From: a virus
Strand: one strand, 5' to 3'
Virus record (IMG/VR): IMGVR_UViG_3300023488_000162
Length of the DNA: 64,000 nt
Below are positions 4,139-55,125 of the stretch, one piece after another. Position 1 is the first letter of the stretch; each line of letters begins with the position of its first letter. The notes under the pieces are model-generated. The model did no database searches. It worked only from the letters and a program-made list of their open reading frames with translations, and was not told the DNA's origin. A program made the position numbers and the translations under genes.

Positions 4139-4369
4139 TCAATCATCAAAAATCTTTTCTCTCGGCACAGGACTTTCTCTACTTTGGACGAGTCGTTTAC
4201 ACTCCGGGCAATACGCATTCCAACAAAGATGTTGTGATACGATATCATTTCCCATGCAATAATCGAAAGCCTCTTTATCGTCTGCCCAGAACTCGCATCC
4301 ACAGCAGCATTTGAAGTGCAGAGCGAATCTTACAGACTTCTTTTTATGTTGAATAATTTTAATCGCCAT
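4139..4369 (-). CDS. Small zinc-ribbon protein, member 1 of a tandem triplet
   Basis: N-terminus MAIKIIQHKKK...FKCCCGCEFWADD and a second Cys pair CPECK. Paralogous to 4369..4701 and 4710..4943. Confidence 0.5.
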   Translation of the reverse strand: MAIKIIQHKKKSVRFALHFKCCCGCEFWADDKEAFDYCMGNDIVSQHLCWNAYCPECKRLVQSRESPVPREKIFDD

Positions 4370-4701: not shown

Positions 4702-4709
4702 ATTTCACC

Positions 4710-4943
4710 TCAATCTACAAAAATCTTTTCTCTTGGAACTGCCGGGAAACAAGATGAAACTTCTGTGTTGCATTCTGGGCAAATCGCCTGTTTGACCGGT
4801 GAGTATTCAGTCCAATCAAATTCTTTTGGGATTTTCGTATCTTCGTCATCAGCCCAAAATACGCATCCACATTTACAAAGGAATTTAACGGCATATCTTA
4901 TTTTCTTTCGCTCATGTTTGTGTTCAATAATCTTAATTGCCAT
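4710..4943 (-). CDS. Small zinc-ribbon protein, member 3 of a tandem triplet
   Basis: N-terminus MAIKIIEHKHERKK...FLCKCGCVFWADDED, then CPECN. Ends in PREKIF(V/D)D like member 1. Confidence 0.5.
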   Translation of the reverse strand: MAIKIIEHKHERKKIRYAVKFLCKCGCVFWADDEDTKIPKEFDWTEYSPVKQAICPECNTEVSSCFPAVPREKIFVD

Positions 4944-4953
4944 ACCATACTCC

Positions 4954-5307
4954 TTACTGAATACTCACACGACCATATACTGACCCATTCTTATCAGCCA
5001 GCAAACACTGCTCCAGATATTCTTGTTTTTTCATAAGTTCGTATTTGGCAGCGAAAATCATACTATTATATTCGGTTGCGGCTTCTTCATAAGTGTCTGC
5101 AAATCGATAATAATCAGGATTTGCCCCAACGCTAAAAGTCTTTGATCTCGTTTTGTTACTCAAGGTATGAAACTTAGAATAGCAACTTCTTTCTTCAAAA
5201 GTACCAAAGACAGGCTCACATTTGATGCCAGCCTTTGTATCGTCAAATCTAAATCCAGTACACCATAGAAGGGTATCTTCTGGGACTGTTTTAATGTCGT
5301 AAACCAT
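4954..5307 (-). CDS. Hypothetical protein
   Basis: 117-aa ORF. Confidence 0.35.
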   Translation of the reverse strand: MVYDIKTVPEDTLLWCTGFRFDDTKAGIKCEPVFGTFEERSCYSKFHTLSNKTRSKTFSVGANPDYYRFADTYEEAATEYNSMIFAAKYELMKKQEYLEQCLLADKNGSVYGRVSIQ

Positions 5308-5317
5308 ATTTTATTCC

Positions 5318-5599
5318 TCAAATATTATTCGCTGCAAACACAAACGACCTATTAAAAATATCTTGGAGATTTCTTTCTTGAATCATATTCTCTTCGGATA
5401 GAGCAACCTTGATAACTTCATCGTCAGTATGCGTCTCGTCATATTCTGCCGTGTCGCAAATCTTATACAGTTTGCCGTCTTTATTTTGAAATAGAGTTCC
5501 TTTACCAAGTTTTAATGGAGTTGTTTTCTCTTCTTCTCGAATATGTGCTTTCATACTATCACCTACAATATGCGTGTAAAAAGGCAGATTCTCTTGCAA
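5318..5599 (-). CDS. Hypothetical protein
   Basis: 93-aa ORF. Confidence 0.3.
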   Translation of the reverse strand: MQENLPFYTHIVGDSMKAHIREEEKTTPLKLGKGTLFQNKDGKLYKICDTAEYDETHTDDEVIKVALSEENMIQERNLQDIFNRSFVFAANNI

Positions 5600-5852
5600 G
5601 CAATCTCATTCTAATTCCACAAGTGCATTTGCACTCAGGACATTGTATTTCTGCCGGACGTCCTGTATTATCATAATTTTTTACCGTTTCGCTAACAGGT
5701 CGTGCCGGTAAAGGCCATACATGAAATTCAGATCTTTTAGCTTCAAATATACACCCGCAAGAGTCACAAGTTACTTTATATAGTTTTTCAGAATCTTTTG
5801 CCCGATGCATTCCATGCTTTATAACATTCATATATTTATTCCTCCCACCCAC
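5559..5852 (-). CDS. Hypothetical zinc-ribbon protein
   Basis: Cys pairs CDSCGC and CPECKCTCG. Confidence 0.3.
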   Translation of the reverse strand: MGGRNKYMNVIKHGMHRAKDSEKLYKVTCDSCGCIFEAKRSEFHVWPLPARPVSETVKNYDNTGRPAEIQCPECKCTCGIRMRLLARESAFLHAYCR

Positions 5853-5872
5853 CCGTTAAACTCAATTAACAA

Positions 5873-6367
5873 TTACGAATGGTCCCAAGTCGAACCATAG
5901 TCAAATTCATCCAGAATTACCGTGAGGTCATATCGACCACGACCAATTTCATAAAAACCACTAAAGCCCTTTGCATCTTCTTTGAGCTTTGCAATATCTT
6001 CATCGTAATGATTCAGAGCACGCTGCCATGCACGATAATCTTTTTCGAGTTCTGTTTCTAAATATCTTTCGTGAAGCCGTTCAAGCCACTCTTCTTTAAT
6101 ATCTGGAGCTGGGTAGATCACAAAAACATATTCGTAATCACTCTTCAAAAGCTGTCTACGAACTGCATCATGTGAAGATACGAACACAACATGTCCCTGT
6201 CTCGATAAATCAATAGCAACGTTGCAATACGATTTTACCCAATTATCATCCTTTACAAAATTACTACTTTCAAGGTCGATTGCACGATACGGATGACCAA
6301 CTGCGTATGTACTTTTACCAATACATGGATATCCAATAACAATCATAAAAACCTCCGTAAAATTCAC
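5873..6367 (-). CDS. P-loop nucleotide/nucleoside kinase-like protein
   Basis: Walker A GYPCIGKST within 15 residues of the N-terminus. At 164 aa it is the size of dNMP/NMP kinases. Confidence 0.5.
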   Translation of the reverse strand: MNFTEVFMIVIGYPCIGKSTYAVGHPYRAIDLESSNFVKDDNWVKSYCNVAIDLSRQGHVVFVSSHDAVRRQLLKSDYEYVFVIYPAPDIKEEWLERLHERYLETELEKDYRAWQRALNHYDEDIAKLKEDAKGFSGFYEIGRGRYDLTVILDEFDYGSTWDHS

Positions 6368-6370
6368 CTT

Positions 6371-6676
6371 TTACTTGATACCGTACTTAGCTTTGATCTT
6401 CTTCAGAGTCTCACTCTTATTGTGATAGTCATCGCGAGCTGCCTGATAAGCGGCCATCTTCTCTGCCAGAACACGCTTTGCTTCGGCTTCTGCGACATCA
6501 GCATCTGCCAGCTCCTTATTCAAAACAAAGCCGCTCGCCTTGATACCATCAATAAAACCATCCATGCGATCCTTCTTGACGCTTTTCTCGCCAATTGCAC
6601 CAGTATCAGTGTTGAACATCTTTACAATAGAATCCTCGACACCGGCAATATTGTAAACATAAAAATACTTAGCCAT
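6371..6676 (-). CDS. Hypothetical protein, tandem paralog A (C-terminus KAKYGIK)
   Basis: N-terminus MAKYFYVY, internal GFIDGIKASGFV, C-terminus KYGIK. Shares these features with the next gene. Confidence 0.4.
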   Translation of the reverse strand: MAKYFYVYNIAGVEDSIVKMFNTDTGAIGEKSVKKDRMDGFIDGIKASGFVLNKELADADVAEAEAKRVLAEKMAAYQAARDDYHNKSETLKKIKAKYGIK

Positions 6677-12868: not shown

Positions 12869-15064
12869 TTAGTTATCGCTCAAATGAACCACACGATCAC
12901 GAATCTCTTGCGTCCGCCCCTGATTCCAAAACTGAGTCCCAATAAAACCGCAGGTACGTCGTGCAACATTCAGTTTATTCTGGTCACGATTACCACAGTT
13001 CGGGCATTCCCAAACGAGCTTGCCGTTATCTTCAACAATCTTAATCTCGCCGTCATAGCCACAAATCTGGCAATAATCAGACTTGATGTTCAGCTCTGCG
13101 TAGATAATAGTGTCGTAGATGTATTTGATGACACTCATCACAGCTGGGATGTTGTTGGTCATGTTCGGGCATTCAATATAAGAAATCGCTCCTCCGGGAG
13201 ACAGCTGCTGGAACTCAGACTCAAACTTCAGCTTCTTGAATGCATCAATATGCTCACGAACCACGACATGATAGCTATTGGTGATGTAATCATGGTCGGT
13301 TACATCTGGAATGATGCCGAACCGCTTTTGCAGGCACTTGGCGAACTTGTAGGTGGTAGATTCCAGCGGGGTGCCGTAGAGACTGTAATCAATATTTTCT
13401 GCTGCCTTCCACTCACTGCACTTGTCGTTCATGTGTTGCATAATCTCAAGAGCAAAAGGTTTTGCTTCATCATCAGTATGGCTCTTACCGGTCATATACT
13501 TTACACATTCATACAGACCTGCGTAACCTAAACTGATGGTTGCATATCCGTCAAACAGCAATCTATCAATCTTCTCGCCCTTCTTCAAACGTGCGATTGC
13601 ACCATGCTGAAAATGAATTGGACTAACATCAGAAGGCGTACCCATCAATCGCTTATACCGAATCTGAAGTGCTCGATGGCACAGTTCAAGACGCTCATCA
13701 AAAATTTTCCAAAACTCAGAAATATCCTTCTTAGAGCTACAAGCAACATCTACCAGATTGATGGTGACAACACCGGCATTAAAGCGACCATAATACTTGT
13801 GGCCCTTCTCCCAATTCATGGCACCAGAAATATTCTCGGTGGTTCGATCAGGGGTCAGGAAGCTGCGGCATCCCATGCAGGGGTAGCAAGCGCCTTTGTA
13901 CTCCAACATCTTCTTCTCAGAAATGTAGTCAGGTACGAATCTCTTGGCAGTACATTTAGCTGCCAATTCAGTCAGATAATAATACTTAGAATTATCTCGA
14001 ATGTTGTCTTCTTCCAGCACATAAATCAGCTTTGGGAAAGCCGGAGTAATCCATGCACCAGTCTCATTCTTCACGCCTTTAATGCGCTGACGAAGGACTT
14101 CTTCAATGATAATTGCAAGGTCATCACGGGTCTGGCCTTCAGGAACTTCATCCAGGTACATAAAAATGGTAATAAAAGGAGCCTGCCCGTTAGTGGTCAT
14201 CAAAGTAATAACCTGATACTGAATAGTCTGAACGCCTGCAACAATTTCTTTATGTAAACGCTTCTCTACAATTCGATTGATAGTCTCCTGATTTGGCATC
14301 TTGTCAATCTCATTGTTTTGAATCATGTCGTAGAACTCCTCATGGACTTCACCCGCAATCTTCTTTCGAGAAACATCCACGAAGGGAGCCAGATGAGACA
14401 GAGTAATACTCTGACCACCATACTGGTTTGAAGCAACCTGTGCGATGATCTGGGTTGCAATATTGCACGCTGTAGAGAAGCTATGTGGTTTGTCGATTCC
14501 TGTACCAGAAATCACAGTGCCGTTTTGCAGCATATCTTCCAGATTGACTAACGAGCAGTTAAACATATGCTGGGCAAAATAGTCGGAATCGTGAAAATGA
14601 ATTCGACCATCATAGTGAGCGTCCACAATATCTTTCGGGAGAAGCAGATTAAAGCTCAGATCTTTGGAGACTTCGCCAGCCATATAGTCACGCTGTACGC
14701 TATTCACAACAGGATTCTTGTTGCTGTTCTCCTGCTTGACCTTCTCATTATCTACATCACAGATGGAAAGAATTTCGCCATATGCTCGTTGCTTCTCACG
14801 AATCTCCTGTCGAAGAATACGCCAGTGATTATAAGCGTCAGCCACATCCGAAAGAGGGCTATTTTTCAACTGGTCAATAACCACATCCTGAATCTGCTCC
14901 ACAGACATCGTATCAGGGATGTCTGCGATGTAGTCTGCAATAGCATTAGACACGCGAGAATCAACTCCTCCAGTCGTATTCGTCATCGCCTTCTCAATCG
15001 CATTTACAATCTTACTTTTGTCAAAAGGAACTTTCGTTCCATCGCGTTTAATCACATATTCCAT
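12869..15064 (-). CDS. nrdD: Anaerobic ribonucleoside-triphosphate reductase (class III RNR)
   Basis: N-terminal ATP-cone (MEYVIKRDGTKVPFDKSKI), ~730 aa, C-terminal Zn-ribbon cysteines and an RTCGF glycyl-radical-type motif. Start set at the MEYVIK Met with AGAGGTGAT RBS. Confidence 0.85.
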   Translation of the reverse strand: MEYVIKRDGTKVPFDKSKIVNAIEKAMTNTTGGVDSRVSNAIADYIADIPDTMSVEQIQDVVIDQLKNSPLSDVADAYNHWRILRQEIREKQRAYGEILSICDVDNEKVKQENSNKNPVVNSVQRDYMAGEVSKDLSFNLLLPKDIVDAHYDGRIHFHDSDYFAQHMFNCSLVNLEDMLQNGTVISGTGIDKPHSFSTACNIATQIIAQVASNQYGGQSITLSHLAPFVDVSRKKIAGEVHEEFYDMIQNNEIDKMPNQETINRIVEKRLHKEIVAGVQTIQYQVITLMTTNGQAPFITIFMYLDEVPEGQTRDDLAIIIEEVLRQRIKGVKNETGAWITPAFPKLIYVLEEDNIRDNSKYYYLTELAAKCTAKRFVPDYISEKKMLEYKGACYPCMGCRSFLTPDRTTENISGAMNWEKGHKYYGRFNAGVVTINLVDVACSSKKDISEFWKIFDERLELCHRALQIRYKRLMGTPSDVSPIHFQHGAIARLKKGEKIDRLLFDGYATISLGYAGLYECVKYMTGKSHTDDEAKPFALEIMQHMNDKCSEWKAAENIDYSLYGTPLESTTYKFAKCLQKRFGIIPDVTDHDYITNSYHVVVREHIDAFKKLKFESEFQQLSPGGAISYIECPNMTNNIPAVMSVIKYIYDTIIYAELNIKSDYCQICGYDGEIKIVEDNGKLVWECPNCGNRDQNKLNVARRTCGFIGTQFWNQGRTQEIRDRVVHLSDN

Positions 15065-15075
15065 GCAATCACCTC

Positions 15076-15882
15076 TTAATCTTCCAACCAACGATTTTCG
15101 GCCACATAGAAAACTCCGACCGCAGCTACAATCAATGCGATCCAGAATACATAAAACCAAATCACTCGTGTACCAGCTGCAGAAATCATATAATCTCGTG
15201 CTTCTTCAATGTTTTTATCTTTAATGAACTGTGCATTATGTATAGTTTTATCGCTCAAATTCGCGTATAATGTACCATCATAACGAACATCTTTGACATA
15301 AAACTCGAATTTTACATGAGAACTGACTTGTACCGTAGTCAGGTACTTGCTGGATGGCATCTTGATGTCACCATACTCAAATTCTTTGCCAAGAAACGTA
15401 ATATTCTTAGAATTGTGTTCTTCTGAACTGTAATAATCCCAAGTCCAGTACGTTTCGACTCTTGTTCTTGTATGGCCTTTACCATCCGTAGTAGTGACAG
15501 TTCGTGTATGCATCGTATAGTGCTTTTCTTCGCAATAGATGTACATCCAATGGCCGTCGATACGTGGATCGCTTACGGTATCTACTGCTTCTAGTGCGCC
15601 TTGGCAAAACGCATTACCTATGTTGGTTCTCATTCCATAATCGAACATATTTTCGGACTCAATCGAAATTGCTGTATTATATTCTTTTTTCTGCTCAAGT
15701 GAATCTCTGGTGATATTTCCAGCGATAACGCTACCAAGTATCAGCATAATGAACACAATACCAACACTGACGATCAATTCACGATAAGTAATTTCGGCAT
15801 TACCGATTTCCAAAAAGGTTACCGACTGCCGGTGCCGCCTCATTCCCCTCATAGGACAGATACTCATAATTCTGAACCTCAT
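15076..15882 (-). CDS. Membrane protein of unknown function (N- and C-terminal TM helices)
   Basis: TM helix LIVSVGIVFIMLILGSVIAG and a C-terminal TM VIWFYVFWIALIVAAVGVFYV. The start is uncertain (Met codons between 15843 and 15882) and the ORF overlaps the lemA 3' end. Confidence 0.4.
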   Translation of the reverse strand: MRFRIMSICPMRGMRRHRQSVTFLEIGNAEITYRELIVSVGIVFIMLILGSVIAGNITRDSLEQKKEYNTAISIESENMFDYGMRTNIGNAFCQGALEAVDTVSDPRIDGHWMYIYCEEKHYTMHTRTVTTTDGKGHTRTRVETYWTWDYYSSEEHNSKNITFLGKEFEYGDIKMPSSKYLTTVQVSSHVKFEFYVKDVRYDGTLYANLSDKTIHNAQFIKDKNIEEARDYMISAAGTRVIWFYVFWIALIVAAVGVFYVAENRWLED

Positions 15883-20862: not shown

Positions 20863-20883
20863 GTATCCTGTGTTATATAGTTA
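20863..20883 (-). promoter_or_regulatory. Conserved 21-bp motif, copy A (GTATCCTGTGTTATATAGTTA on +), 13 nt upstream of the ligase ATG
   Basis: One of seven near-identical copies in the window. It directly follows a terminator-like hairpin at 20890-20929. Confidence 0.5.
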
Positions 20884-20931
20884 TAGCTAATAAAGAAAGG
20901 CTTGTCGTTACGAGCAAGCCATTTCTTTCCC

Positions 20932-20952
20932 GTATCCTGTATTATATAGTTA
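20932..20952 (-). promoter_or_regulatory. Conserved 21-bp motif, copy B. Forms a 21-bp inverted repeat with copy C.
   Basis: GTATCCTGTATTATATAGTTA, then a 38-nt spacer, then its exact reverse complement. Confidence 0.45.
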
Positions 20953-20990
20953 AAGAGAGAATTTTAAGCCTCCGGGATGGAGACTTTTTA

Positions 20991-21011
20991 TAACTATATT
21001 ATACAGGATAC
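20991..21011 (+). promoter_or_regulatory. Conserved 21-bp motif, copy C (inverted orientation), just 3' of the helicase gene
   Basis: TAACTATATTATACAGGATAC on the + strand. Confidence 0.45.
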
Positions 21012-35854: not shown

Positions 35855-35875
35855 GTATCCTGTATTACTTAGCTA
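35855..35875 (-). promoter_or_regulatory. Conserved 21-bp motif, copy D (GTATCCTGTATTACTTAGCTA on +), 15 nt upstream of the start at 35839
   Basis: Matches the other copies by sequence. Confidence 0.45.
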
Positions 35876-38278: not shown

Positions 38279-39808
38279 TTAGTCTTCTGGAAAATGCTTC
38301 TTTGTCACCGCAACGCAAAACGGTTCAATTTCAGATCCCCAGATAGCAGTACCATAACCATACGTACTTTCAAAGACAAGCGGAAAGCCACCGATTCCAT
38401 CGAAAAGACTGCCAAGCGTAGGATTTTCACAGATATACGGCTTCATTTTCTGGAAAATCCAATACCACTGAGGCAACGCAATCGAGTTTCCGAGTGCTTT
38501 GTAACGAGGAGAATCGGCAGGTTTGTGCTTTTTACCATTCTCATCAAACCACTCGCCAATATCGGTCCATCCATCAGGAAAACCCTGTAATCGTTCACAC
38601 TCAACAGGAGTCAGGCGGCGAACAATCCATTGCAGATTCTTCGTTTCCTTCTCTACAATCAAGTCAGTAGCATCCTTGTAGTCACGAGATTTCATCGTAC
38701 TAACTTGTTCACTTTCCTTGTATTCACCAATGCGTTGCATTGCAAAGGCTTTCTTTTCAGCAACAAGCGGCATATTATTGCCACCAGTTCCCCATTGAGC
38801 CGTACAAGCCGGACTTGTATTACCTTGCTGGGTGTATCGAGCATCTTGACTATGGCTCTCAAATACAATTGGTTGATGACCATGCTCTTGTGCTCTTATT
38901 GTTCCTACAATATCGTAAGAAACATTCATTACACTACCGCCCTGATCATTCAAGACACAAATCTTTTGTTTTGAATTATGTAAAGAGGTGTTGTCTGCCA
39001 AACAAATTAACGTTTGATCTTGCAATGTAGAAAGCGTTGCACTCTTCTCGGTCTGTACCAGTGCGCCTTTGCCACCACCTTCGCATCCTGAACGAATCTT
39101 TAAAGTGTAGGCAACAGCATTACAGTCAATAGTGTTTATAGTAAAAGCAGTATCTTCTTTTACACCAGTCCCGTTCATGTTGGTTTCTCTGTCAATCATG
39201 TTTCCGACAATACAAAAGCTTTTTTCTCCCACCACTCGATCATCTTTAGCAGTGCATTCTTCAGTAATTCTGGCAAAGCTTTGCCACGTCGGGATGCTCT
39301 CGTCAGGATTCCCTGGCACGCCCGTGCGCTCAAATAGTATTTCTGCGGCACGTTGTCCTCTAAAATCCATGACAAGCGCGATTCTTTGACGACGTTGGGG
39401 CACTCCCCAATATTGAGCATCGAAGAGTCTCCATGCCAAAGACCATCCATTACCGGAAATTGCGCCGGATTTAGACCATTTTCCGCCTTTTCCCGAAGGT
39501 TTAGGAATTGTAGCGTCTGCTTCGACGATGTGTGCAAATTCTTCCAAGACACATCGGAAGTCTTCTCCGTTGTTTGAGGAAAGTGCTCCTCTAACATTTT
39601 CCCAGATTGCAAATTTTGGACATTCTCCATTGGTGGCATCCCTCATTTCCTTTATCACACGAATCATTTCCATAAATAGACCAGACCGTTCTCCAGCCAA
39701 ACCTGCCCGCTTACCGGCAATAGAAAGGTCTTGGCTAACAAGGTGAACCACCAGTAATACACGAGACAGGCTCAATCTTAGAACCATCAATCTCGCAAAT
39801 ACTTCCAT
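38279..39808 (-). CDS. C5-cytosine DNA methyltransferase homolog with circularly permuted motif order and Ser replacing the catalytic Cys
   Basis: Motif order along the protein is IV-like (HLVSQDLSIAGKRAGLAGERSGLF), VI (ENVRG), VIII (GVPQRRQR), a variable TRD, IX (LTPVECERLQGFPDGW), X (GNSIALP), then I (LFDGIGGF) and II/III (SEIEPFCVAVTKKHFP) at the C-terminus. The expected PCQ is VSQ. The Ser codon AGC was confirmed in the DNA. Confidence 0.6.
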   Translation of the reverse strand: MEVFARLMVLRLSLSRVLLVVHLVSQDLSIAGKRAGLAGERSGLFMEMIRVIKEMRDATNGECPKFAIWENVRGALSSNNGEDFRCVLEEFAHIVEADATIPKPSGKGGKWSKSGAISGNGWSLAWRLFDAQYWGVPQRRQRIALVMDFRGQRAAEILFERTGVPGNPDESIPTWQSFARITEECTAKDDRVVGEKSFCIVGNMIDRETNMNGTGVKEDTAFTINTIDCNAVAYTLKIRSGCEGGGKGALVQTEKSATLSTLQDQTLICLADNTSLHNSKQKICVLNDQGGSVMNVSYDIVGTIRAQEHGHQPIVFESHSQDARYTQQGNTSPACTAQWGTGGNNMPLVAEKKAFAMQRIGEYKESEQVSTMKSRDYKDATDLIVEKETKNLQWIVRRLTPVECERLQGFPDGWTDIGEWFDENGKKHKPADSPRYKALGNSIALPQWYWIFQKMKPYICENPTLGSLFDGIGGFPLVFESTYGYGTAIWGSEIEPFCVAVTKKHFPED

Positions 39809-39835: not shown

Positions 39836-39856
39836 GTATCCTGTGTTACATAGCTA
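39836..39856 (-). promoter_or_regulatory. Conserved 21-bp motif, copy E (GTATCCTGTGTTACATAGCTA on +), 27 nt upstream of the MTase-like start
   Basis: Immediately follows the tRNA-operon terminator hairpin. Confidence 0.5.
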
Positions 39857-39960: not shown

Positions 39961-40038
39961 CTGGTGGGACAGGCAAGATTTGAACTCGCGACCAAGCGGT
40001 TATGAGCCGCCAGCTCTGACCAACTGAGCTACTATCCC
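39961..40038 (-). tRNA. tRNA-Met (anticodon CAT; could also be Ile2/lysidine type), CCA encoded
   Basis: Hand fold: acceptor GGGATAG/CTGTCCC, D-arm AGCTCAGTTGG, anticodon loop CTCATAA, T-arm GCGAGTTCAAATCTTGC. Confidence 0.75.
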
Positions 40039-40064
40039 ATGCAAACGCCGATTTTCATCGGCGC

Positions 40065-40136
40065 GATGCCAGCGAAGGAATCGAACCTTATCTCTCGGCG
40101 TTTCCGAGCGCTTTTACCATTAAGCTATCCAGCCGT
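40065..40136 (-). tRNA. tRNA-like sequence, degenerate. Possible pseudo-tRNA or non-canonical tRNA.
   Basis: Clear D-arm (TAGCTTAATGGTAAAAGC) and T-arm (AAGGTTCGATTCCTT), but the acceptor strands are not complementary by hand and the anticodon arm folds as CTCGG-AAACG-CCGAG, a 5-nt loop. Confidence 0.3.
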
Positions 40137-40265
40137 ATACCTCAGAATTTAATTCTCACTATCCAAGCTACGTCGCGTTCCAATATGATCACTCTTGGCA
40201 ACCATGTCGTAACATATAGGCTTCTTTCGGCTCTGAGCAACCGGTGCAGCGTAAGGGGCTGCGTG

Positions 40266-40341
40266 TGGAGCGACTGACGGAGTACGATCCCGCAACATTC
40301 GGAATGGAAAACCGACGCTCTGCCAATTGAACTACAGTCGC
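40266..40341 (-). tRNA. tRNA-Gly (anticodon TCC), CCA encoded
   Basis: Acceptor GCGACTG/CAGTCGC, anticodon loop TTTCCAT, unusual T-loop ATCGTAC closed by G-U pairs. Confidence 0.6.
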
Positions 40342-40443
40342 ATAAGAACCCAACTTACAAAGCACTACTGCACCATCACTGGCGAGCTGGGAATAATAGT
40401 GGTCAAAGGAGTTCAACCATGAACAACAACAATTCATGACCGT

Positions 40444-40527
40444 GGTGCGGATAGTGGGGGTCGAACCCACACGCCTTGCGGCACAGGAACCTAAATCCTG
40501 CGCGTCTGCCAATTCCACCATATCCGC
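40444..40527 (-). tRNA. tRNA-Leu (anticodon TAG), type II with long variable arm, CCA encoded
   Basis: Acceptor GCGGATA/TATCCGC, anticodon stem-loop CAGGA-TTTAGGT-TCCTG, T-arm GTGGGTTCGACCCCCAC. Confidence 0.7.
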
Positions 40528-40532
40528 ATAAA

Positions 40533-40603
40533 TTGCGCCAACAGGGGTCGAACCTGTGATGGAGGAGTCAAAGTCCTCTGCCTTACCGCTTGGCGATGGC
40601 GCA
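40533..40603 (-). tRNA. tRNA-Gln (anticodon TTG)
   Basis: Acceptor TGCGCCA/TGGCGCA, D-arm GCCAAGCGGTAAGGC (Gln-type), anticodon loop CTTTGAC, T-arm ACAGGTTCGACCCCTGT. No CCA encoded. Confidence 0.7.
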
Positions 40604-40691
40604 TCATATACCCCGCTTACTACGCCACATTGCTCTGTTTCCAGAGAGCCGGGAATAATGTGAATGAAAAATTCTACATGCCCTTTCGGGC

Positions 40692-40767
40692 TGGTCCGAG
40701 TGACAGGTCATGATCCTGCGGCCTCATGCTCCCAAAGCACGCGCTCTTCCAACTGAGCTACACCCGG
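40692..40767 (-). tRNA. tRNA-Pro (anticodon TGG), CCA encoded
   Basis: Acceptor CCGGGTG/CACTCGG, D-arm GCTCAGTTGGAAGAGC, anticodon loop TTTGGGA, unusual T-loop ATCATGA. Confidence 0.6.
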
Positions 40768-40774
40768 ATATAAA

Positions 40775-40858
40775 TGCCACCGACGGGATTTGAACCCGTA
40801 CTCTGTTGCCAGAAAGGGATTTTAAGTCCCTCGTGCCTGCCAATTTCACCACGGTGGC
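40775..40858 (-). tRNA. tRNA-Leu (anticodon TAA), type II
   Basis: Acceptor GCCACCG/CGGTGGC, anticodon stem-loop AGGGA-CTTAAAA-TCCCT, long variable arm, T-arm ACGGGTTCAAATCCCGT. Confidence 0.7.
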
Positions 40859-40863
40859 TTATA

Positions 40864-40945
40864 TGCCCAAAATGGGATTCGAACCCATACGCTTTCGCAG
40901 AGTTGTTTGAGAACTCCATGTCTGCCTACATTCCATCATTTGGGC
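40864..40945 (-). tRNA. tRNA-Leu (anticodon CAA), type II
   Basis: Acceptor GCCCAAA/TTTGGGC, anticodon stem-loop GAGTT-CTCAAAC-AACTC, variable arm TGCGAAAGCGT, T-arm ATGGGTTCGAATCCCAT. Confidence 0.65.
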
Positions 40946-43293: not shown

Positions 43294-43677
43294 TTAGTTC
43301 AACTCTTCCAGCTTCTTCATCAGCTGGTCTACGTCCATATCTTCCAGCTCCTTGTCCTTCTTCTTTGCCACAATCTTCATAATCTTATCGCGCTGCGCCT
43401 TCTTCTCGGCTGCATCCACACGAGCCTCAGATTCAGCCAGCTTGACAGACACGATATACTTGACCAGCTCAATCTTGTTTGCCAGTTCGGTATCTTCGGC
43501 ACTCTTAACAGCCAGCAAGGAGTCTTCGTCTGCGGTCTTCTTCTGACGATTCAGGGTCTTAAAAATCGCATCTAGTGCCTCGACACTCAGATCCCACAGA
43601 TCTTCAACAGTCATAATACCCTTATAGTTGAAGCGATAGCGATTACGGGTTGCAATTTCAAACAGATTCTTTTCCAT
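43294..43677 (-). CDS. Hypothetical helical protein
   Basis: 127-aa ORF with a Lys/Glu-rich C-terminus. Confidence 0.35.
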   Translation of the reverse strand: MEKNLFEIATRNRYRFNYKGIMTVEDLWDLSVEALDAIFKTLNRQKKTADEDSLLAVKSAEDTELANKIELVKYIVSVKLAESEARVDAAEKKAQRDKIMKIVAKKKDKELEDMDVDQLMKKLEELN

Positions 43678-43691
43678 AATAATTTCTCCTC

Positions 43692-45770
43692 TTAAATAAC
43701 AACTTTCAGAACCCGCTCAGTAGCGCCCTGAACCTTGACAACAAAGGAATCATGTTTCGTCTCAGAGAACCCAACGCCGGACAGCTGGTCATCTACCGAC
43801 TGAACTGCCATCTGAGAACCAAGAGCCTCAAATACTCGCTTATGCTGTAACAGTTCCGCCTTCAGGAATTCATTGTAGAAGCCATTGGGCTTTTCAGGGT
43901 TAACACAATCCTTGAGCATGAAGAAGTAGTGACGGTTGCCATTACCAGTCTGTTCATCCCAGTAGTTCGGAGAGTACATCACAACAGACACAGGCACGAA
44001 CTGATTGGAATTTACACCCCAGATCTCGCGGGTGCTAGTAGAACTGGGCAGCAGCTCCTTGATAGAGAATTTGCCATCCTTCAGCGTGACTTTTGCCACG
44101 GCGACATTCTGACCCTGATGCAGCGGCTTATCATAGTTAAACGAGTAGATGTTGCCATCAAATTCGATTTCAGCACGGAAACCAGTTTTACCACCACGAT
44201 TAGCGTAGCAGTTTACATAGAAGCTGTACTCGCCCTCCTTCATCTTTTTGATGTCAGGCCAGGTGATATTCTCGACCGCAGCTTTCCCCTGATTAGGACA
44301 ACGGATATCAACATCTAGGCGGCCATCAGTACGAGGATTCCACTTATCGCCATAATAGATATGATTCTTATCAGGTTCAATGCAATGAGCATCCTCATCG
44401 TTTTCATCCCATTCACCCGACACATCGTTCCACTGGATCGAGAAACGCAGCACACCATCCACCTTGCCGCCAGCAGCCTTAACGTTTTCGCGAATATCGC
44501 TGTCTGTCATATTACCTGTATACGCCCAACTGAAACCATTAGGCCACTTGAACATGCTCGGCGCACTCTTATCCTGCGGTGCAATCAAAGACATCATATT
44601 CTTCTCAAAACGATTCTCCATGAACAGTTCTAAGCCAGTCGCAGTCGGAAGAACATCCCTGATGAATTTATCGATACCGATTTCTTCTGCACGGCCAAAC
44701 TTCTTCGGATCAATCGCAACAGTCTTAGCCATTGCCTCAAACGGATTCACAGCGCCCATCACACGAGGGGCAGCATCACGGTTGCAGAACATGATGTTGT
44801 TGATAGTAACATCATCCAGAGTGGCGAACCGACGACCCAGACTGCTCATATAGCCAAGTTCGGTGACAGTCTTCTTTGCATCTTCCAACATCTTCTTGGT
44901 AAAAATCGCCTTGGGACGCTTATAGTTTGCAGGAGCAACAACTTTCTCGAAAGCAGTAACGGCTGCATCCACGTTCATACCCTCACTCAGATTTACCAGC
45001 AAAGTACCGATAGCGGTGTTACGGATACGAAGCTGTCCTATATCGCTCCACGCCGGTGCCAACCAAACATATGCGGCCTTGTTCTCAGTCGGAGTATTGT
45101 CGTATTCGATTTTGTTAGTCTTGAATACCTTGACGGCGTTTTCAAATTCCTTACCACGATACAGACTATTCTGTGCAATCAGCTCCAGAACAGTATCAAC
45201 AGCATCCATGGTCAGTTCTTCCAGAGAACGCTTATATACGTTTGCGGAATCACGCCACTGAGCCATCTTGGTAGCAACGTCATCAGGCCGCACAATGAAA
45301 CGCTGCGGAATCTTGACTGCGAAATGGTCCCAAGTATGCACATCCTTGTGATTTTCATCGTACTCGTAGTTCATCTCGGTGCCGAACATATCGCCAGAAC
45401 CAATCATATTGCGACTGACAAAGTACGGATTCACAATAGTGCGGCTCTTCACATAAGCATCCATGGCGTCCACAACAGGCTGATACTTGACAGACTTTGC
45501 ATCAAAATCCCACACAGTAATCATTTTTCCATCATCAAACGCTACTAGCTTGCCGATATTCTTCACGAAACGGCGGCAGCAGGAACAGTCATACTCGCGC
45601 CGTTTACGGAACAACTCATTCGTGCCAGCCGGGAAGCTGTCGAGATACAGATTGTACAGTTCATCCTCGTCTGCATCGGTGATAAACAGAGGGTTTTCGC
45701 CCTTCACCATCTCATTGAAGTGGTCTTGCAGCAGTGCACGAAATTTCTTGAAATCAGACATTGTTATCAT
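43692..45770 (-). CDS. Large hypothetical protein (692 aa), unknown function
   Basis: Long ORF with a GGAG-type RBS, preceded by motif copy F. Contains a CSCCRRF motif. No family recognised by eye. Confidence 0.45.
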   Translation of the reverse strand: MITMSDFKKFRALLQDHFNEMVKGENPLFITDADEDELYNLYLDSFPAGTNELFRKRREYDCSCCRRFVKNIGKLVAFDDGKMITVWDFDAKSVKYQPVVDAMDAYVKSRTIVNPYFVSRNMIGSGDMFGTEMNYEYDENHKDVHTWDHFAVKIPQRFIVRPDDVATKMAQWRDSANVYKRSLEELTMDAVDTVLELIAQNSLYRGKEFENAVKVFKTNKIEYDNTPTENKAAYVWLAPAWSDIGQLRIRNTAIGTLLVNLSEGMNVDAAVTAFEKVVAPANYKRPKAIFTKKMLEDAKKTVTELGYMSSLGRRFATLDDVTINNIMFCNRDAAPRVMGAVNPFEAMAKTVAIDPKKFGRAEEIGIDKFIRDVLPTATGLELFMENRFEKNMMSLIAPQDKSAPSMFKWPNGFSWAYTGNMTDSDIRENVKAAGGKVDGVLRFSIQWNDVSGEWDENDEDAHCIEPDKNHIYYGDKWNPRTDGRLDVDIRCPNQGKAAVENITWPDIKKMKEGEYSFYVNCYANRGGKTGFRAEIEFDGNIYSFNYDKPLHQGQNVAVAKVTLKDGKFSIKELLPSSTSTREIWGVNSNQFVPVSVVMYSPNYWDEQTGNGNRHYFFMLKDCVNPEKPNGFYNEFLKAELLQHKRVFEALGSQMAVQSVDDQLSGVGFSETKHDSFVVKVQGATERVLKVVI

Positions 45771-45793: not shown

Positions 45794-45814
45794 GTATCCT
45801 GTGTTATATAGTTA
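45794..45814 (-). promoter_or_regulatory. Conserved 21-bp motif, copy F (GTATCCTGTGTTATATAGTTA on +), 23 nt upstream of the 692-aa gene start
   Basis: Lies between the terminator hairpin at 45830-45843 and the gene start. Confidence 0.5.
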
Positions 45815-45827: not shown

Positions 45828-45861
45828 AAGGGGCCGAAGCCCCCTGTTTTTAATTTTTGTG
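45828..45861. terminator. Bidirectional intrinsic terminator-like hairpin (GGGGC-CGAA-GCCCC flanked by T-tracts)
   Basis: + strand AAGGGGCCGAAGCCCCTGTTTTTAATTTTTG. The minus strand has TTGATTTTA after the stem. Located 3' of the 45850..46776 gene. Confidence 0.55.
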
Positions 45862-46827: not shown

Positions 46828-47247
46828 TCAAGCAAATGCGGCAAAATTCTGAAAATCTATAGTATGTTGTACGCCACTCAGGAACGCTGCGAGCAAAAAC
46901 GGTTCATCCTTGCATCTTGCCATTGCGATCATATTCATCTGACACTCCGACAAGACACCAAGTTTCTTGATGAACTGTCCTTTGTTAAGTGTATCAGTCT
47001 CTTCGCAGAGAACGATACTATCAACCTCTAGGAACTCACAGTCTTCCTTTGAGAGTAGAACATGAACCGGAGAACGCTTATACGTTCTTGAAGATAACGG
47101 ATTCCCCTTGATTGTTGGGCTGAAGAGGTTACGCTTGTTGTTACTTGTCACAACGAACGGTCGAATGCCGCGCTGCTGATGACCTGTCGCATTGGATAGA
47201 TCAACCAACCAAACCTCTCCGACCTTTGGGTCAATATTGTTATCCAT
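46828..47247 (-). CDS. PemK/Kid/MazF-family type II toxin (mRNA interferase endoribonuclease)
   Basis: VGEVWLVDLSNATGHQQRGIRPFVVTS closely parallels Kid/PemK GEIWLVSLDPTAGHEQQGTRPVLIVT, and the downstream core is conserved. Start set at the MDNNID Met, 7 nt after AGAGGAGA. Confidence 0.7.
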   Translation of the reverse strand: MDNNIDPKVGEVWLVDLSNATGHQQRGIRPFVVTSNNKRNLFSPTIKGNPLSSRTYKRSPVHVLLSKEDCEFLEVDSIVLCEETDTLNKGQFIKKLGVLSECQMNMIAMARCKDEPFLLAAFLSGVQHTIDFQNFAAFA

Positions 47248-47284
47248 AGTCATTCTCCTCTACAATGATGTAGCTCCGTTCCAT

Positions 47285-47305
47285 AGCTACATTATACAGG
47301 ATACA
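47285..47305 (+). promoter_or_regulatory. Conserved 21-bp motif, copy G (inverted orientation), between the 121-aa gene and the PemK-like toxin gene
   Basis: TAGCTACATTATACAGGATAC on the + strand. Confidence 0.4.
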
Positions 47306-47338
47306 ATTACAGAAGTCAAGAGGTTTTTGAAAATATTT

Positions 47339-47704
47339 TTAGTGCCCGTACAACTCAGGATTCTCTGATACGAACACACTGGTATTATCGAAGATCATCT
47401 CATACGCTTTCTCTGCACAGCCAGACCTAAGTTCAATTCTCCTTACTTCATGGCATTTTTGTCGCAACTCGATGTGACTCTCATTTCCGAAGAACCCCAC
47501 GCCATTAACAATCCCACCCGTCTCTACGCCAATGTCGTCAATCTTTTTGCAGATCATGTGAATATCCACACCATTACAAACAAAGCAGACCCACACTCGC
47601 TTTTTTCTTATGTACTTTAAAAAATCATCAACCCGTATAACTTTCAAAACCTTTCTATCGCTCATCAAGAATAACCGCCTTCCGCTCACACAAACAACTT
47701 TCAA
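47339..47704 (-). CDS. Hypothetical protein (121 aa) immediately upstream of the PemK-like toxin
   Basis: The ORF has no recognisable antitoxin fold (AbrB/SpoVT, RHH, Phd). Confidence 0.35.
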   Translation of the reverse strand: MKVVCVSGRRLFLMSDRKVLKVIRVDDFLKYIRKKRVWVCFVCNGVDIHMICKKIDDIGVETGGIVNGVGFFGNESHIELRQKCHEVRRIELRSGCAEKAYEMIFDNTSVFVSENPELYGH

Positions 47705-47790
47705 GATATATTATACACAGCCTTTTGTTTTAGTCAATATATTACACATCTTTTTGTTGTATTATTTATCAAAATTTTAGATGATGCCAT

Positions 47791-48405
47791 TCACTCAGCA
47801 TCATCCACAACCAACTTCGAATCATAATAGAACCTATGTGCGCCAAATTGTCCAGCAAAGGTTGCTCCACGCTCGTGCCAACTGCCGGGAGCTGCAGTCG
47901 GGGTTACAAACCATTGAATAGGTTTGTTTGAAATTTTAGCACCATAGTCAAACACCATAGAGACAGCCAGCTCATTCTCTGCCGTAACCTTCCTATTATA
48001 TAAGGAACTATAACCATACTTCTTAAAGACCTGCTGGATGGTTAGACCATCAAGTACAGCGGAATCATAAAGACATTGAGCAACGGCCATCTGGCCTTCC
48101 AAACTGTCAGCACCTGCTTCACAAGCAACAATCTGCTCTGCAAGAGCACGCTCATCATCAGTGAGTTCATGTTTACCCTGGCTAAAGTTCACCACCTTCG
48201 TCTCAACGATTTCCTTTACAAAAATTGTAGGTTCATCGTTCTCATCTTCTTTTGTTGCCTGCGTAACATTATGAACTGATTGATCATTATAATATGTATA
48301 TGTGCCTCCAACTTCAGTATTCGGTAACGCTTTTATTACTAAATTCCCTGCCAGCAGGCACATTATACACACAATAGCAACGCTTTGCTCACGATTTGTT
48401 AACAA
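47791..48405 (-). CDS. SleB/CwlJ-like cell wall hydrolase (Hydrolase_2 family) with N-terminal signal/TM
   Basis: Conserved block ALAEQIVACEAGADSLEGQMAVAQCLYDSA plus an N-terminal hydrophobic segment. Confidence 0.55.
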   Translation of the reverse strand: MLTNREQSVAIVCIMCLLAGNLVIKALPNTEVGGTYTYYNDQSVHNVTQATKEDENDEPTIFVKEIVETKVVNFSQGKHELTDDERALAEQIVACEAGADSLEGQMAVAQCLYDSAVLDGLTIQQVFKKYGYSSLYNRKVTAENELAVSMVFDYGAKISNKPIQWFVTPTAAPGSWHERGATFAGQFGAHRFYYDSKLVVDDAE

Positions 48406-53247: not shown

Positions 53248-53940
53248 TCACGCTGTTTCCAGCTCTCTTTTAACCAGCGGACGACGCTTTGTTGCATTTT
53301 TTAGCCAATCGTTTCCACTAGGAACTTGTCTATCCACTCTTGTATTACGACCACCACCTATCGGACACACTCGACGGTAATCATCAACAGTCTTGCAGCC
53401 AAGAGATTCGGCTTCATCCAGTGCTTTTCGCACATAAGCCCATGTGCTACCGCCTAGATCAGAGCACTTTCCAATCACGGCAAGAACAAGTTCATCGCCC
53501 ATGCGCTCAACATACCCATTCAAAGCCTTCTTTCCTGTGGCACCAAGTTTCCCGATATTCTCTCTAAATACATTCTCGATAGATTTCGTCGTTGTCGTCT
53601 CATCACAAGACGAAGACGATATCTTATCTTTTTCTTTCTCTTTTTCTTTTTCTAGCTTGCTTTTGCTTACACTTGTTTCACTTTGCTTGCGTTTGCTTTC
53701 GCCACCAGCTTTTCCAGAAATACGCTTACCTTCGATGTATTCAGCATCTTTAATTAAATCTCTCTTTATAGCAGGCCACACATACCGCTCATTTCCGTTG
53801 AGTTCAGGCTCCGTTCCAGACGATTTATATTTCATCATCGCCAGTACCAAACGCCCCACCTCAGCAGCACTAAGTGGTTCAAAGTAGCTCTCATAGGTAT
53901 CCCAGATTTTAATATAAGTATCAGCCATCATACACCTCAA
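53248..53940 (-). CDS. DnaD-domain-like replication/primosome-associated protein
   Basis: C-terminal LAVIGKCSDLGGSTWAYVRKALDEAESLGCKTVDDY resembles the DnaD/DnaB_2 C-terminal domain. Low-complexity KEKEKEK linker. Confidence 0.4.
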   Translation of the reverse strand: MRCMMADTYIKIWDTYESYFEPLSAAEVGRLVLAMMKYKSSGTEPELNGNERYVWPAIKRDLIKDAEYIEGKRISGKAGGESKRKQSETSVSKSKLEKEKEKEKDKISSSSCDETTTTKSIENVFRENIGKLGATGKKALNGYVERMGDELVLAVIGKCSDLGGSTWAYVRKALDEAESLGCKTVDDYRRVCPIGGGRNTRVDRQVPSGNDWLKNATKRRPLVKRELETA

Positions 53941-54782
53941 GAATTCTCACTATGAGTATTCACACCATAATTGATTCCAGAGTAATATCTCTCATCCACT
54001 TCTGAATCAAGACCAATATAATGAAGAGTGATTGCCTGACTACTATGATTCAAAGCGTGCTGAAGCCATGCCAGAGCCATAACATCATCACGGTGCTGTA
54101 CCATAAACTGATAACCGAATGTCTTACGGCAACTATGTGTTCCAAGATTATATGGAAGAGCCATATCCTTTTGAACCTTTTTCATAATTCGTCCAAAACT
54201 ATCCACATCAAGCGGCTCCCCGGCTACCTTTGGATTTGCCTCGTGTGTATACATAATTCCAGTCTTTTTACTAATTGATGTCCCGCCTGTGCTCCTCAAT
54301 GAATTGCGAGAGCTTCCTTTACATGACGGGAAAAGCCAATCGTCATAATGGAGTCTTGCTTTATCAATATAAGTAGAAATCACTTCCAAAGCAGATTCTG
54401 GAAGAAAAACAATACGGTATTTTCCAGTCTTCTTTTCCTTCATTCGTATCTTTGCATTTGCATTTACTTGCAACTTTCCATTTACCCTCTGTGTTGTAAC
54501 ATCTGAAACCTTAAAACGAAGCAAATCGCTTGCACGAAAACCAGTACATACACCAACATTAAACAAACACCAATCACGGTACATCCCACGATTCCAAAAA
54601 TATTCCGAAATTCGTTTAATATCCTCTACATCTTTAATAGGTTGCACCGTTCCATTACAAGCTTCCTTGCGTTTGATATTATAGTTTTTCACCTGGTTAT
54701 GCTTCACTTTTGGGGTAGGATCAACCTTTGGCAGATTAAACTCAACTGCGTTATTTTCGTTTTTCTCAGGTACTGCGTTCAT
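53937..54782 (-). CDS. int: Tyrosine site-specific integrase/recombinase
   Basis: Box I VGVCTGFRASDLLRFKVSDV, H-x-x-R LGTHSCRKTFG, catalytic Tyr region AITLHYIG. Start set at the MNAVPEK Met after AAAGGAGA. Confidence 0.65.
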   Translation of the reverse strand: MNAVPEKNENNAVEFNLPKVDPTPKVKHNQVKNYNIKRKEACNGTVQPIKDVEDIKRISEYFWNRGMYRDWCLFNVGVCTGFRASDLLRFKVSDVTTQRVNGKLQVNANAKIRMKEKKTGKYRIVFLPESALEVISTYIDKARLHYDDWLFPSCKGSSRNSLRSTGGTSISKKTGIMYTHEANPKVAGEPLDVDSFGRIMKKVQKDMALPYNLGTHSCRKTFGYQFMVQHRDDVMALAWLQHALNHSSQAITLHYIGLDSEVDERYYSGINYGVNTHSENS

Positions 54783-54795
54783 ATTTGCATCTCCT

Positions 54796-55125
54796 TTAAA
54801 TTCCATATTTTAAACAATATTTACCATAGGACAATCCTTCTGCGTCTGCCATTTTTGCAATTTCAATAAATGTCGGCTTATGTTTCTTTTTATTTTTACA
54901 TCTAATATCCTTTTCTCTATCCACAATCTTTCTGCAATTATCGCAATAAAGCTTTCCACACTTTGGCCCATACCACGTGACACCACATCGTTTGCACGTT
55001 ATATTTCCATATTTCATCATGTTCTTATACCTCAAATTCATCAATCTTCCAGTGGTGACGATAATAATTTTCACCACTACAAACAACAGATGCTTCCGCA
55101 GCTTCGCACCATGTTTCATCATCAC
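54796..55125 (-). CDS. Hypothetical zinc-ribbon protein
   Basis: Cys pairs CKRCG and CDNC. Confidence 0.3.
   Translation of the reverse strand: MMMKHGAKLRKHLLFVVVKIIIVTTGRLMNLRYKNMMKYGNITCKRCGVTWYGPKCGKLYCDNCRKIVDREKDIRCKNKKKHKPTFIEIAKMADAEGLSYGKYCLKYGI

Follow-up and report, generated by a model that had tools for sequence, protein, structure and literature searches.

In the 64-kb stretch of viral DNA analysed here (IMG/VR record IMGVR_UViG_3300023488_000162, hereafter the window, to which all positions refer and in which every long open reading frame (ORF) lies on the minus strand), a gene for a PemK/MazF-type endoribonuclease is directly followed by a gene of the MrpR/SroF repressor family, and both genes stand behind one promoter that is overlapped by a repeated 21-bp element. 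The explanation that we prefer, with about as much belief as doubt, is that the toxin is the promoter-proximal gene of a two-gene operon shared with the master repressor of the phage, the two forming an autoregulated RNase-plus-repressor module. Most likely, the toxin is part of a lysis-lysogeny or early shut-off switch and not a stray toxin lacking its antidote. The first-pass annotation, made from the letters alone, had presented the gene as an apparent orphan, and this framing has to be given up, since the toxin is predicted to be co-transcribed with the MrpR/SroF-type repressor just downstream and the pair is conserved wherever the toxin family is found. As for the phage itself, its gene content suggests a gut phage related to Bacillus phage SPbeta. 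In fact the window is syntenic with the early/replication region of SPbeta, including a Sak4-like AAA_24 protein, a RecJ-like protein, PolIII alpha, a C5 methylase, a ligase and a ribonucleotide reductase, and YorF is present in relatives of the window phage. The coordinates of all features are collected in Table 1.

The toxin belongs to the MazF family and keeps its active site

The product of the toxin gene matches the Pfam profile PF02452 (PemK_toxin) with 68.9 bits against a cut-off of 23.1 (expectation value (E) 5.4e-19) over 102 of the 109 profile positions, and it also matches phrog_1936, a "MazF-like growth inhibitor", with E 3.6e-21. The earlier identification of a Kid/PemK/MazF-type mRNA interferase of 139 residues, for which a search with profile hidden Markov models had been proposed as a check, is thereby confirmed. 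The peptide quoted in that identification lies in the ORF at 46828-47253 on the minus strand; since a GAGGAG Shine-Dalgarno sequence is located 7 nt from the second ATG, at 47247, and the homologues have 139 residues, we place the start at this second ATG. Searched against PDB, a profile of the toxin family finds the MazF proteins of S. aureus and B. subtilis with E between 5e-21 and 3e-18, and Kid with E 7e-6. The AlphaFold2 model of the toxin, with a predicted local distance difference test score (pLDDT) of 82, has the SH3-like beta-barrel of the MazF fold, and Foldseek relates it to the S. aureus and B. subtilis MazF structures with a probability of 1.00 and target-normalised template modelling scores of 0.79-0.86 (about 0.83).

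The residues R31 and S54 of the toxin align with R25 and T48 of B. subtilis MazF, which we take to be the catalytic residues. Nine homologues with identities down to 56% were aligned: R31 does not vary among them and position 54 is always occupied by Ser or Thr; SPT, H64, D78-S79 and E84-E85 are invariant as well. The active site is intact, and a loss of its residues, named beforehand as the finding that would overturn the claim, was not seen. The well-studied MazF proteins of B. subtilis and S. aureus (EndoA/YdcE; PDB 4MDX, 4ME7, 4MZM) have the same family and fold at 29-35% identity, sharing with the window toxin the catalytic Arg and Thr/Ser and the SPT, H, DS and E motifs. Unlike in mazEF, however, the window toxin has no upstream gene for a MazE (ribbon-helix-helix, RHH) protein, is encoded by a phage, has a repressor gene next to it, and is longer at the C-terminus, where an extension of about 15-25 residues beyond MazF (ARxxDEPFLxxAF...) is kept within the toxin family. 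Proteins of the MazF family cleave RNA at specific sequences and leave a 2',3'-cyclic phosphate and a 5'-OH. From its conserved residues and its modelled fold, the window toxin would be a functional phage-encoded endoribonuclease of this type.

The downstream gene resembles the repressor MrpR of SPbeta

The product of the second gene, of 308 residues, is related to MrpR by several independent comparisons. The Pfam profile MrpR_N_CB is matched by all six of the diverse family members tested (best E 4.2e-8) and MrpR_C_cat by one of the six; the window protein itself reaches MrpR_N_CB with E 4.9e-4 and 21.1 bits, below the cut-off of 27 bits. Among the precomputed matches of related loci, which carry L numbers here, MrpR_N_CB and MrpR_C_cat are both found in L172, MrpR_C_cat in L175-180, which are close relatives of the window phage, and MrpR_N_CB in L189 with E 8.8e-14. 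Aligned with hhalign to SPbeta YopR (MrpR), the repressor family gives a probability of 93.4% and E 2.4e-7 over 255 columns, and the window protein matches phrog_5830, annotated as "integrase", with E 4.4e-11. A sequence search of PDB with the MrpR-like family returned only weak tyrosine-recombinase matches, and 8A0A was not retrieved. At the position of the recombinase box-I Arg the window protein has T138 (GLTSEE, as against GLRISE of Tn1549 Int), the remaining catalytic positions not being reliably aligned; such a replacement agrees with MrpR, a protein of integrase fold in which catalytic residues have been lost (PMC10516654). Judged from these profile comparisons, the 308-aa protein is a degenerate, tyrosine-recombinase-like member of the MrpR/SroF repressor family. 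By analogy with MrpR it would bind DNA and serve as the master repressor of the phage.

The toxin promoter is overlapped by a repeated element

The promoter of the toxin gene, P2, agrees with the sigma-70/sigma-A consensus at 11 of 12 positions, and the minus strand of the gap upstream of the toxin reads ...CTC TTGACT TCTGTAATTGTATCCTG TATAAT GTAGCTATGGAACGGAGCTACATCATTGTAGAGGAGAATGACTATG. The 21-bp element GTATCCTGTRTWAYATAGYTA has seven matches with at most three mismatches in the window, where 0.01 are expected, and all of them are intergenic; the conserved motif pointed out in the first-pass annotation is real and non-random, and one of its copies, copy G, does stand in the toxin gap. About 80 related contigs show no variation in the -35 and -10 hexamers of P2, in the motif or in the TGGAACGGAGCTACA that comes next, but free variation at the 5' side of the spacer. 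By its position copy G looks like an operator of the MrpR-like repressor, comparable to the SPBRE of SPbeta, and the order of the whole unit is, as read from the sequence, a promoter with a putative operator, the toxin, the repressor and a terminator.

Concerning its orientation, copy G had been described as inverted relative to the promoter-like copies. It is indeed opposite to five of the other six, but the copy at 20991-21011 has the same orientation and also the same register to a promoter, in that case a perfect one (TTGACA-17-TATAAT, 12/12). The five copies in the other orientation are located 3-25 nt upstream of ribosome-binding sites, mostly just past terminators. These five, three of which have no recognisable sigma-A promoter nearby, are reminiscent of promoters for phage RNA polymerases, and they are what could be said for regarding the motif as a phage-specific promoter, so that copy G would fire rightward from about 47305 and give an antisense RNA or an RNA antitoxin. 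We consider this highly improbable, because both inverted copies lie in the same register inside sigma-A consensus promoters of the gene strand, no plus-strand promoter of at least 8/12 coincides with copy G, from clade to clade the element changes along with the repressor, searches for tandem repeats and for Rfam antitoxin RNAs found neither, and the window proteins that were scanned include no identified phage RNA polymerase. What had been proposed as an antisense promoter instead overlaps the spacer and the -10 of P2, which reads into the toxin, and the antisense-RNA variant of an antitoxin has no support.

The leader downstream of P2 contains a further conserved structure. Together with the right half of copy G it forms an inverted repeat ATGTAGCT-N9-AGCTACAT (47262-47290), which with its loop reads ATGTAGCT-ATGGAACGG-AGCTACAT and extends from the end of copy G into the toxin leader. 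Among the relatives no compensatory changes are seen in its stem. Compared with Rfam, it matches Glutamine-II only partially and below threshold (19.9 bits, cut-off 33, E 0.074), and an RNA antitoxin was rejected as a candidate, this being the sole Rfam match and tandem repeats being absent.

The toxin-repressor pair is conserved across clades

In all of the 156 scorable loci of close relatives, the small upstream gene, the toxin gene and the repressor gene are present together. Beyond these, the order small protein, promoter, PemK and MrpR-like gene recurs in L161, L162, L163, L168, L169 and L172; in L184-187 a 125-aa protein, PemK and a 344-aa MrpR-like protein follow each other, and in L189-192 a 143-aa protein, PemK, a 417-aa protein and a 312-aa MrpR-like protein. 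The complete layout from promoter through PemK and MrpR to terminator is seen in L163, L168 and L175, and those parts that can be checked are shared by L161, L162, L169 and L172. For example, a TTGAC(T/A) promoter is located in the gap upstream of the toxin in L161, L163, L168, L169 and L172, and in L162 only the TTGACT -35 is clear, while hairpins equivalent to the operon terminator are found downstream of the MrpR-like gene in L175, L163, L162 and L161. A more distant clade, L189-L192, is found on IMG/VR contigs of 111-146 kb at locus coordinates 3537-6649, with a toxin 41% identical to the L162-clade query P0039, and its 417-aa protein, which has no Pfam match, overlaps the start of the MrpR-like gene.

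Between clades the toxin keeps 57-91% identity, the repressor 26-48% and the small protein 27-56%, and the repeated element is replaced by another one at the same positions. L163 has its own element TTTGTTATTATATAT in the toxin promoter and the inverse of it just past the repressor gene; L175 has an inverted copy of its own element at the same post-repressor position; L162 has CAAAGRTGAAYTTGKCTAACAAAAT upstream of the toxin, past the repressor gene and before YorF. If repressor and operator co-evolve, one would expect just this, a diverged repressor along with another element in the same places. SroF proteins from different phages have likewise been reported to differ in the boxes that they recognise (bioRxiv 10.1101/2025.11.27.690993).

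The same conservation bears on the thought that the MrpR-like protein could itself be the antitoxin, binding MazF and autoregulating through copy G in a toxin-antitoxin system of reverse order. With the toxin first, a DNA-binding partner second and an operator at the promoter, the unit does resemble higBA and mqsRA, and the adjacency of toxin and repressor is conserved. However, the partner is a 308-aa homologue of MrpR, and the same element precedes many other operons, which indicates a global phage repressor; moreover, the conservation of the toxin is not matched by the MrpR-like protein, which goes down to 26-30% identity, and in L189-192 the 417-aa gene separates the two. We therefore hold such a system to be quite unlikely.

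No canonical antitoxin is found, and the upstream gene encodes a protein of an unfamiliar fold

The layout of canonical mazEF, pemIK or kis-kid systems, where a small antitoxin gene is located upstream of the toxin and overlaps or is tightly coupled with it, is absent from this locus. Of ten small ORFs lying near the toxin on either strand, none matched a Pfam antitoxin family (MazE, AbrB, RHH, Phd), so that a hidden antitoxin ORF near the toxin was rejected. Over the 1,715 six-frame ORFs of the window, a regular expression for the Y.EM motif of a MazE-mimicking helix found nothing, and a phmmer search with YosL and MazE gave no match (best E 0.89); a mimic of the MazE, YosL or AimX type in the window was likewise discarded. 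In this respect the first-pass annotation was right that no Kis/PemI/MazE-like antitoxin is adjacent or overlapping, and in particular the short antitoxin ORF overlapping the toxin start, which would have contradicted it, was not found within the window.

What does precede the toxin is a small gene in the same orientation, which had been read as encoding a 121-aa protein of unknown fold. The unfamiliar fold stands, but the length does not: the sixty-odd homologous clusters all have 108 residues, and TTG 47704, the start needed for 121 residues, is the predicted transcription start of P1, the gene's own promoter, so that the protein is 108 residues long and begins at ATG 47665. The gap to the toxin is 91 nt, and the toxin is located behind its separate promoter. 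The 108-aa protein has no Pfam and no PHROG match, and it belongs to a very small family: a profile run exhaustively against 1.84 billion representatives returned 14. As had been recommended, its structure was predicted; the AlphaFold2 model (pLDDT 83, predicted template modelling score 0.77) is built of nine strands with one or two short helices, and the modelled fold is of a YojF/PH-like beta type, apparently unlike any known antitoxin, Sar, YosL or AimX. The protein is neutral (isoelectric point (pI) 7.7) and possesses neither an acidic or MazE-like helix at its C-terminus nor a motif of the MxxxYxEM type; the comparison of its family with YosL by hhalign gave a probability of 0.07%. There is also no similarity to YopT, which from its gene position we take to be the Sar of SPbeta.

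The promoter region P1 shows its own regulation-like features. Two direct repeats CAAAAAGATGTGTA(T)AATATAT, namely CAAAAAGATGTGTAATATAT (47756-47737) and CAAAAGGCTGTGTATAATATAT (47727-47706), are found there; one lies beside the -35 and the other spans the -10, and both are kept in relatives. They share TGTATAATATA with the 21-bp element but are without its GTATCC end, and they may be sites of a second regulator or weak sites of the repressor. No SOS/LexA box is found near the small gene (47700-47800), and the total of such boxes in the window is below chance; a Sar-like small gene under SOS control was rejected for want of an SOS box and for the nine strands and the neutral pI of the product.

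Could the 108-aa protein nevertheless neutralise the MazF dimer as the partner of a non-canonical type II pair, either in an addiction or abortive-infection cassette or as a pro-lytic inhibitor like AimX and YosL? We keep this as a tentative alternative, which moreover can coexist with the module of RNase and repressor. In fact a small gene with the orientation of the toxin is found ahead of it in every case; in the window clade this gene has a strong promoter of its own, and it evolves much faster than the toxin (27-56% against 57-91% identity), as antitoxins often do; AimX is found at the same position in SPbeta and phi3T; and in L189-192 the 143-aa ORF, acidic and aromatic-rich, is separated from the start of the toxin by 24 nt that contain no promoter, a spacing classic for antitoxin and toxin. 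Yet the fold and the neutral charge are unlike those of known antitoxins and there is no MazE-like helix, an independent promoter separates the two genes, and in other clades the upstream small protein is not detectably related although the toxin is conserved. Besides, among 68 haplotypes the alleles of small protein, toxin and repressor are freely shuffled, so that co-inheritance gave no signal of partnership, and identity correlations were uninformative. Finally, a clear homologue of 93 aa occurs without PemK in L170/L171 (Logan contigs; L170 at locus coordinates 1390-2901), where it is followed by a 106-aa unknown protein, a 66-aa HTH_3 protein and a serine recombinase, which seems from these genes to be another neighbourhood of the lysogeny type.

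Comparison with known systems and a possible role in the lysis-lysogeny decision

In SPbeta, MrpR binds the repeated SPBRE at ten promoters, including PyopM of its own yopMNOPQR operon, and YopM, the first product of this operon, binds the antitoxin MazE so that host MazF is freed (PMC10516654). In phi3T, lysogeny is favoured by active MazF; the MazF inhibitors AimX and YosL act by means of a MazE-like helix, and aimX is located directly upstream of the repressor operon (PMC10769878). As a monomer, SroF binds a 26-bp asymmetric box at many distant sites, and its antagonist Sar is a small, phage-specific antirepressor encoded one ORF away (bioRxiv 10.1101/2025.11.27.690993). The window operon is like yopMNOPQR (sroA-F) of SPbeta and phi3T in that the repressor with the integrase fold comes last and a repeated element is located at the promoter; in those phages MazF activity is raised by the product of the first operon gene, the small gene immediately upstream is pro-lytic, and the downstream replication genes are syntenic with the window. 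It is unlike them in that it starts with MazF itself and not with the MazE-binding YopM/phi3T_93, has two genes instead of the six in SPbeta, uses an element of unrelated sequence, and belongs to a phage of an anaerobic gut Firmicute and not of Bacillus. Pfam named no AimR, AimP or AimX among the proteins scanned upstream of the operon, not every small ORF having been examined, and a YosL homologue was not found either. With Sar, the 108-aa protein shares a small size, phage specificity, fast evolution and a gene one ORF from that of the repressor; Sar, however, has four strands and three helices in an intertwined dimer, is an acidic mimic of DNA and has a LexA box, as against nine strands with one or two helices, neutrality and no SOS box.

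On the module proposed here, the repressor would bind the 21-bp boxes and shut off the several early and replication operons that they precede, and at copy G it would limit both its own synthesis and that of the RNase by negative autoregulation. The RNase made together with it would clear the RNAs that already exist while the repressor blocks new transcription, and this joint transcriptional and post-transcriptional shut-off might lead to lysogeny, or to an early-to-later transition if the phage is effectively lytic. The task would be the same as that for which SPbeta and phi3T borrow the MazF of the host through sequestration of MazE by YopM/phi3T_93. The toxin itself might be restrained by tight transcriptional autorepression, possibly with the aid of the small protein at the position of AimX. 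More speculatively, a widespread lineage of SPbeta-like gut phages may have internalised MazF as the post-transcriptional arm of their switch, with the hypervariable upstream small proteins as phage-specific inhibitors and an RNA repair enzyme that might reverse or limit the damage; we put forward this wider scenario as a conjecture, and think it fairly unlikely.

Several points weigh against the proposed module. A simple operator acting by promoter occlusion leaves the five copies near ribosome-binding sites unexplained, three of which have no sigma-A promoter of at least 8/12 nearby; possibilities are that these are roadblock sites or an unrecognised class of promoters. If MazF is produced along with a maintenance repressor and not neutralised, it ought to damage the lysogen unless its level or specificity is very restricted. 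UACAU is the cut site of the MazF proteins of B. subtilis and S. aureus, and this word is neither depleted in the toxin-repressor operon nor informatively distributed. A scan of 185,579 species-representative genomes for a prophage copy and its host found none, returning a single unrelated Blautia MazF only, so that the phage may be lytic, its "repressor" being then a temporal regulator. What the sequences establish is the identity of the toxin with its intact active site, the family of the repressor, the layout of the operon, the overlap of promoter and motif, and the conservation across clades; DNA binding by the repressor, the activity and targets of the RNase, a part in lysogeny and a role for the 108-aa protein are inferred.

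Another reading is that the enzyme is an RNase of lytic growth, serving host shut-off, turnover of early mRNAs or anti-defence, that it needs no antitoxin since the death of the host is of no consequence, and that its linkage with the repressor reflects nothing but shared early timing. T4 RegB is a sequence-specific phage RNase of this kind, which has a toxin-like fold (RelE/YoeB-like) and no antitoxin and inactivates early mRNAs; it belongs to a different fold family from the window toxin, and it is not known to share an operon with a repressor. Besides the missing prophage copy in the representative genomes, solitary MazF-like genes are common in phages of Firmicutes (76 phage records), and an enzyme with kinase, phosphatase and RNA ligase domains lies just downstream with seven tRNA genes, which fits a conflict at the RNA level. 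Solitary phage pemK/mazF genes are indeed already well known: the "MazF-like growth inhibitor" genes of phrog_1936, for instance in Perkons, PMBT24 and the S. aureus cluster B phages, are likewise PemK genes without an annotated antitoxin. In the two records inspected, those of Psychrobacillus phage Perkons and Enterocloster phage PMBT24, the contexts are apparently unrelated, and unlike in the window no repressor with an MrpR-like annotation or match stands beside the toxin; coupling with MrpR was looked for in Perkons as the best annotated phage match and is absent there. On the other side, shared timing alone hardly suffices for a terminator-bounded operon with an MrpR-type repressor that is kept at 41-91% toxin identity, and because the putative operator overlaps the promoter, the RNase would be turned down exactly as the repressor accumulates. 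We thus regard a purely lytic role as unlikely. In the literature we found no description of a MazF gene coupled with an MrpR-type repressor.

Genomic neighbourhood, host and further observations

Further downstream lies a Pnkp-like RNA repair gene (Table 1). A repair gene follows the MrpR-like gene immediately in L175-180 and L163, and L161 has a split version of it. Since the products of MazF are substrates of such enzymes, a functional link between the toxin and the repair enzyme is conceivable. Between repressor and repair gene the window has two more genes, for a 692-aa protein (phrog_1735, function unassigned) and a 127-aa protein, at 43294-45770 on the minus strand; as these are absent at that position in L175-180, they would be an inserted cassette with its own preceding copy of the 21-bp element.

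Table 1. Positions of the toxin-repressor operon, the copies of the 21-bp element and neighbouring features in the window
Feature	Position	Strand	Remarks
NrdD, anaerobic class III ribonucleotide reductase	12869-15160	-	E 7e-189
Cluster of three copies of the 21-bp element	20863-21011	mixed	20863-20883 (+), 20932-20952 (+), 20991-21011 (-)
Copy of the 21-bp element	35855-35875	+	Immediately upstream of a ribosome-binding site
C5 cytosine methylase gene	38279-39808		
Copy of the 21-bp element	39836-39856	+	Follows the terminator that lies past the tRNA cluster and precedes the methylase ribosome-binding site
Seven tRNA genes	39962-40945	-	Directly after the 736-aa repair gene
Pnkp-like heal-and-seal RNA repair enzyme, 736 aa	41013-43223	-	AAA_33 (polynucleotide-kinase-like), Metallophos and T4-Rnl1-type RNA ligase domains
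Copy of the 21-bp element	45794-45814	+	Just past the operon terminator, 24 nt upstream of the 692-aa gene
Intrinsic terminator closing the toxin-repressor operon	45829-45845	-	GC-rich hairpin AGGGGGCTTCGGCCCCT then T-run, 5 nt past the stop codon
MrpR/SroF (YopR)-like repressor gene, 308 aa	45850-46776	-	51 nt downstream of the toxin, no terminator between
PemK/MazF-type endoribonuclease gene, 139 aa	46828-47247	-	ATG 47247; 141 aa from ATG 47253
Conserved leader segment TGGAACGGAGCTACA...	47262-47283	-	Invariant in relatives
Copy G of the element, GTATCCTGTATAATGTAGCTA	47284-47304	-	Overlaps P2 spacer and -10; putative repressor operator
Promoter P2 of the toxin-repressor operon	47291-47319	-	TTGACT (47319-47314), 17-nt spacer, TATAAT (47296-47291)
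Fast-evolving small protein gene, 108 aa	47339-47665	-	ATG 47665; candidate MazF inhibitor or switch factor
Promoter P1 of the 108-aa gene	47710-47737	-	TTGACT, 16-nt spacer, TATAAT; 11/12 match, kept in relatives
Terminator-like hairpin between the 204-aa upstream gene and P1	47778-47807	-	12-pair stem, then AAATTTTGAT

The presence of NrdD indicates a strictly anaerobic host; when 41% G+C, ribosome-binding sites of the form AAGGAGG and promoters with the sigma-A consensus are considered as well, a gut Firmicute is the probable host, as far as sequence features can tell. About 7 kb upstream of the toxin, at 53248-54806 on the minus strand, a 289-aa tyrosine recombinase (Phage_integrase, E 2.5e-16) adjoins a DUF6291/DnaB_2 protein; it could be the counterpart of SPbeta YopP or of the integrase, and in L162 an integrase is likewise found 2-3 kb upstream of the toxin. 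In L175-L180, at locus coordinates 1-2900, proteins with GmrSD_N, RlaP and Lar_restr_allev domains (defence or anti-restriction) are encoded upstream of the small gene, and this region differs between contigs.

On the sense strand of the whole window the words CCTGG, ATTAAT, TTCGAA, AGTACT, GCCGGC, TGGCCA and GTGCAC are strongly under-represented, which looks like avoidance of restriction sites. Word avoidance gave no indication of the specificity of the toxin, the depleted words being palindromic restriction sites and the contrasts between operon and background being dominated by composition.

Implications for phage lysogeny

Host MazF is known to tip SPbeta and phi3T toward lysogeny, an effect seen only in Bacillus so far. 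In the phage lineage described here, which is very common in human gut metagenomes, a MazF gene is wired directly to an MrpR-type repressor under an apparent operator of that repressor. For annotation this calls for some caution, in that PemK genes of phages should not be labelled orphan toxins or "growth inhibitors" without a check of the gene downstream. Moreover, the small proteins upstream form a family of new fold and might include an inhibitor of a kind other than MazE. If the module is as we propose, it would offer a compact system of two or three genes for finding the MazF cleavage targets that favour lysogeny, and the partnership of RNase and repressor would be an ancestral or recurrent design principle of this phage family.

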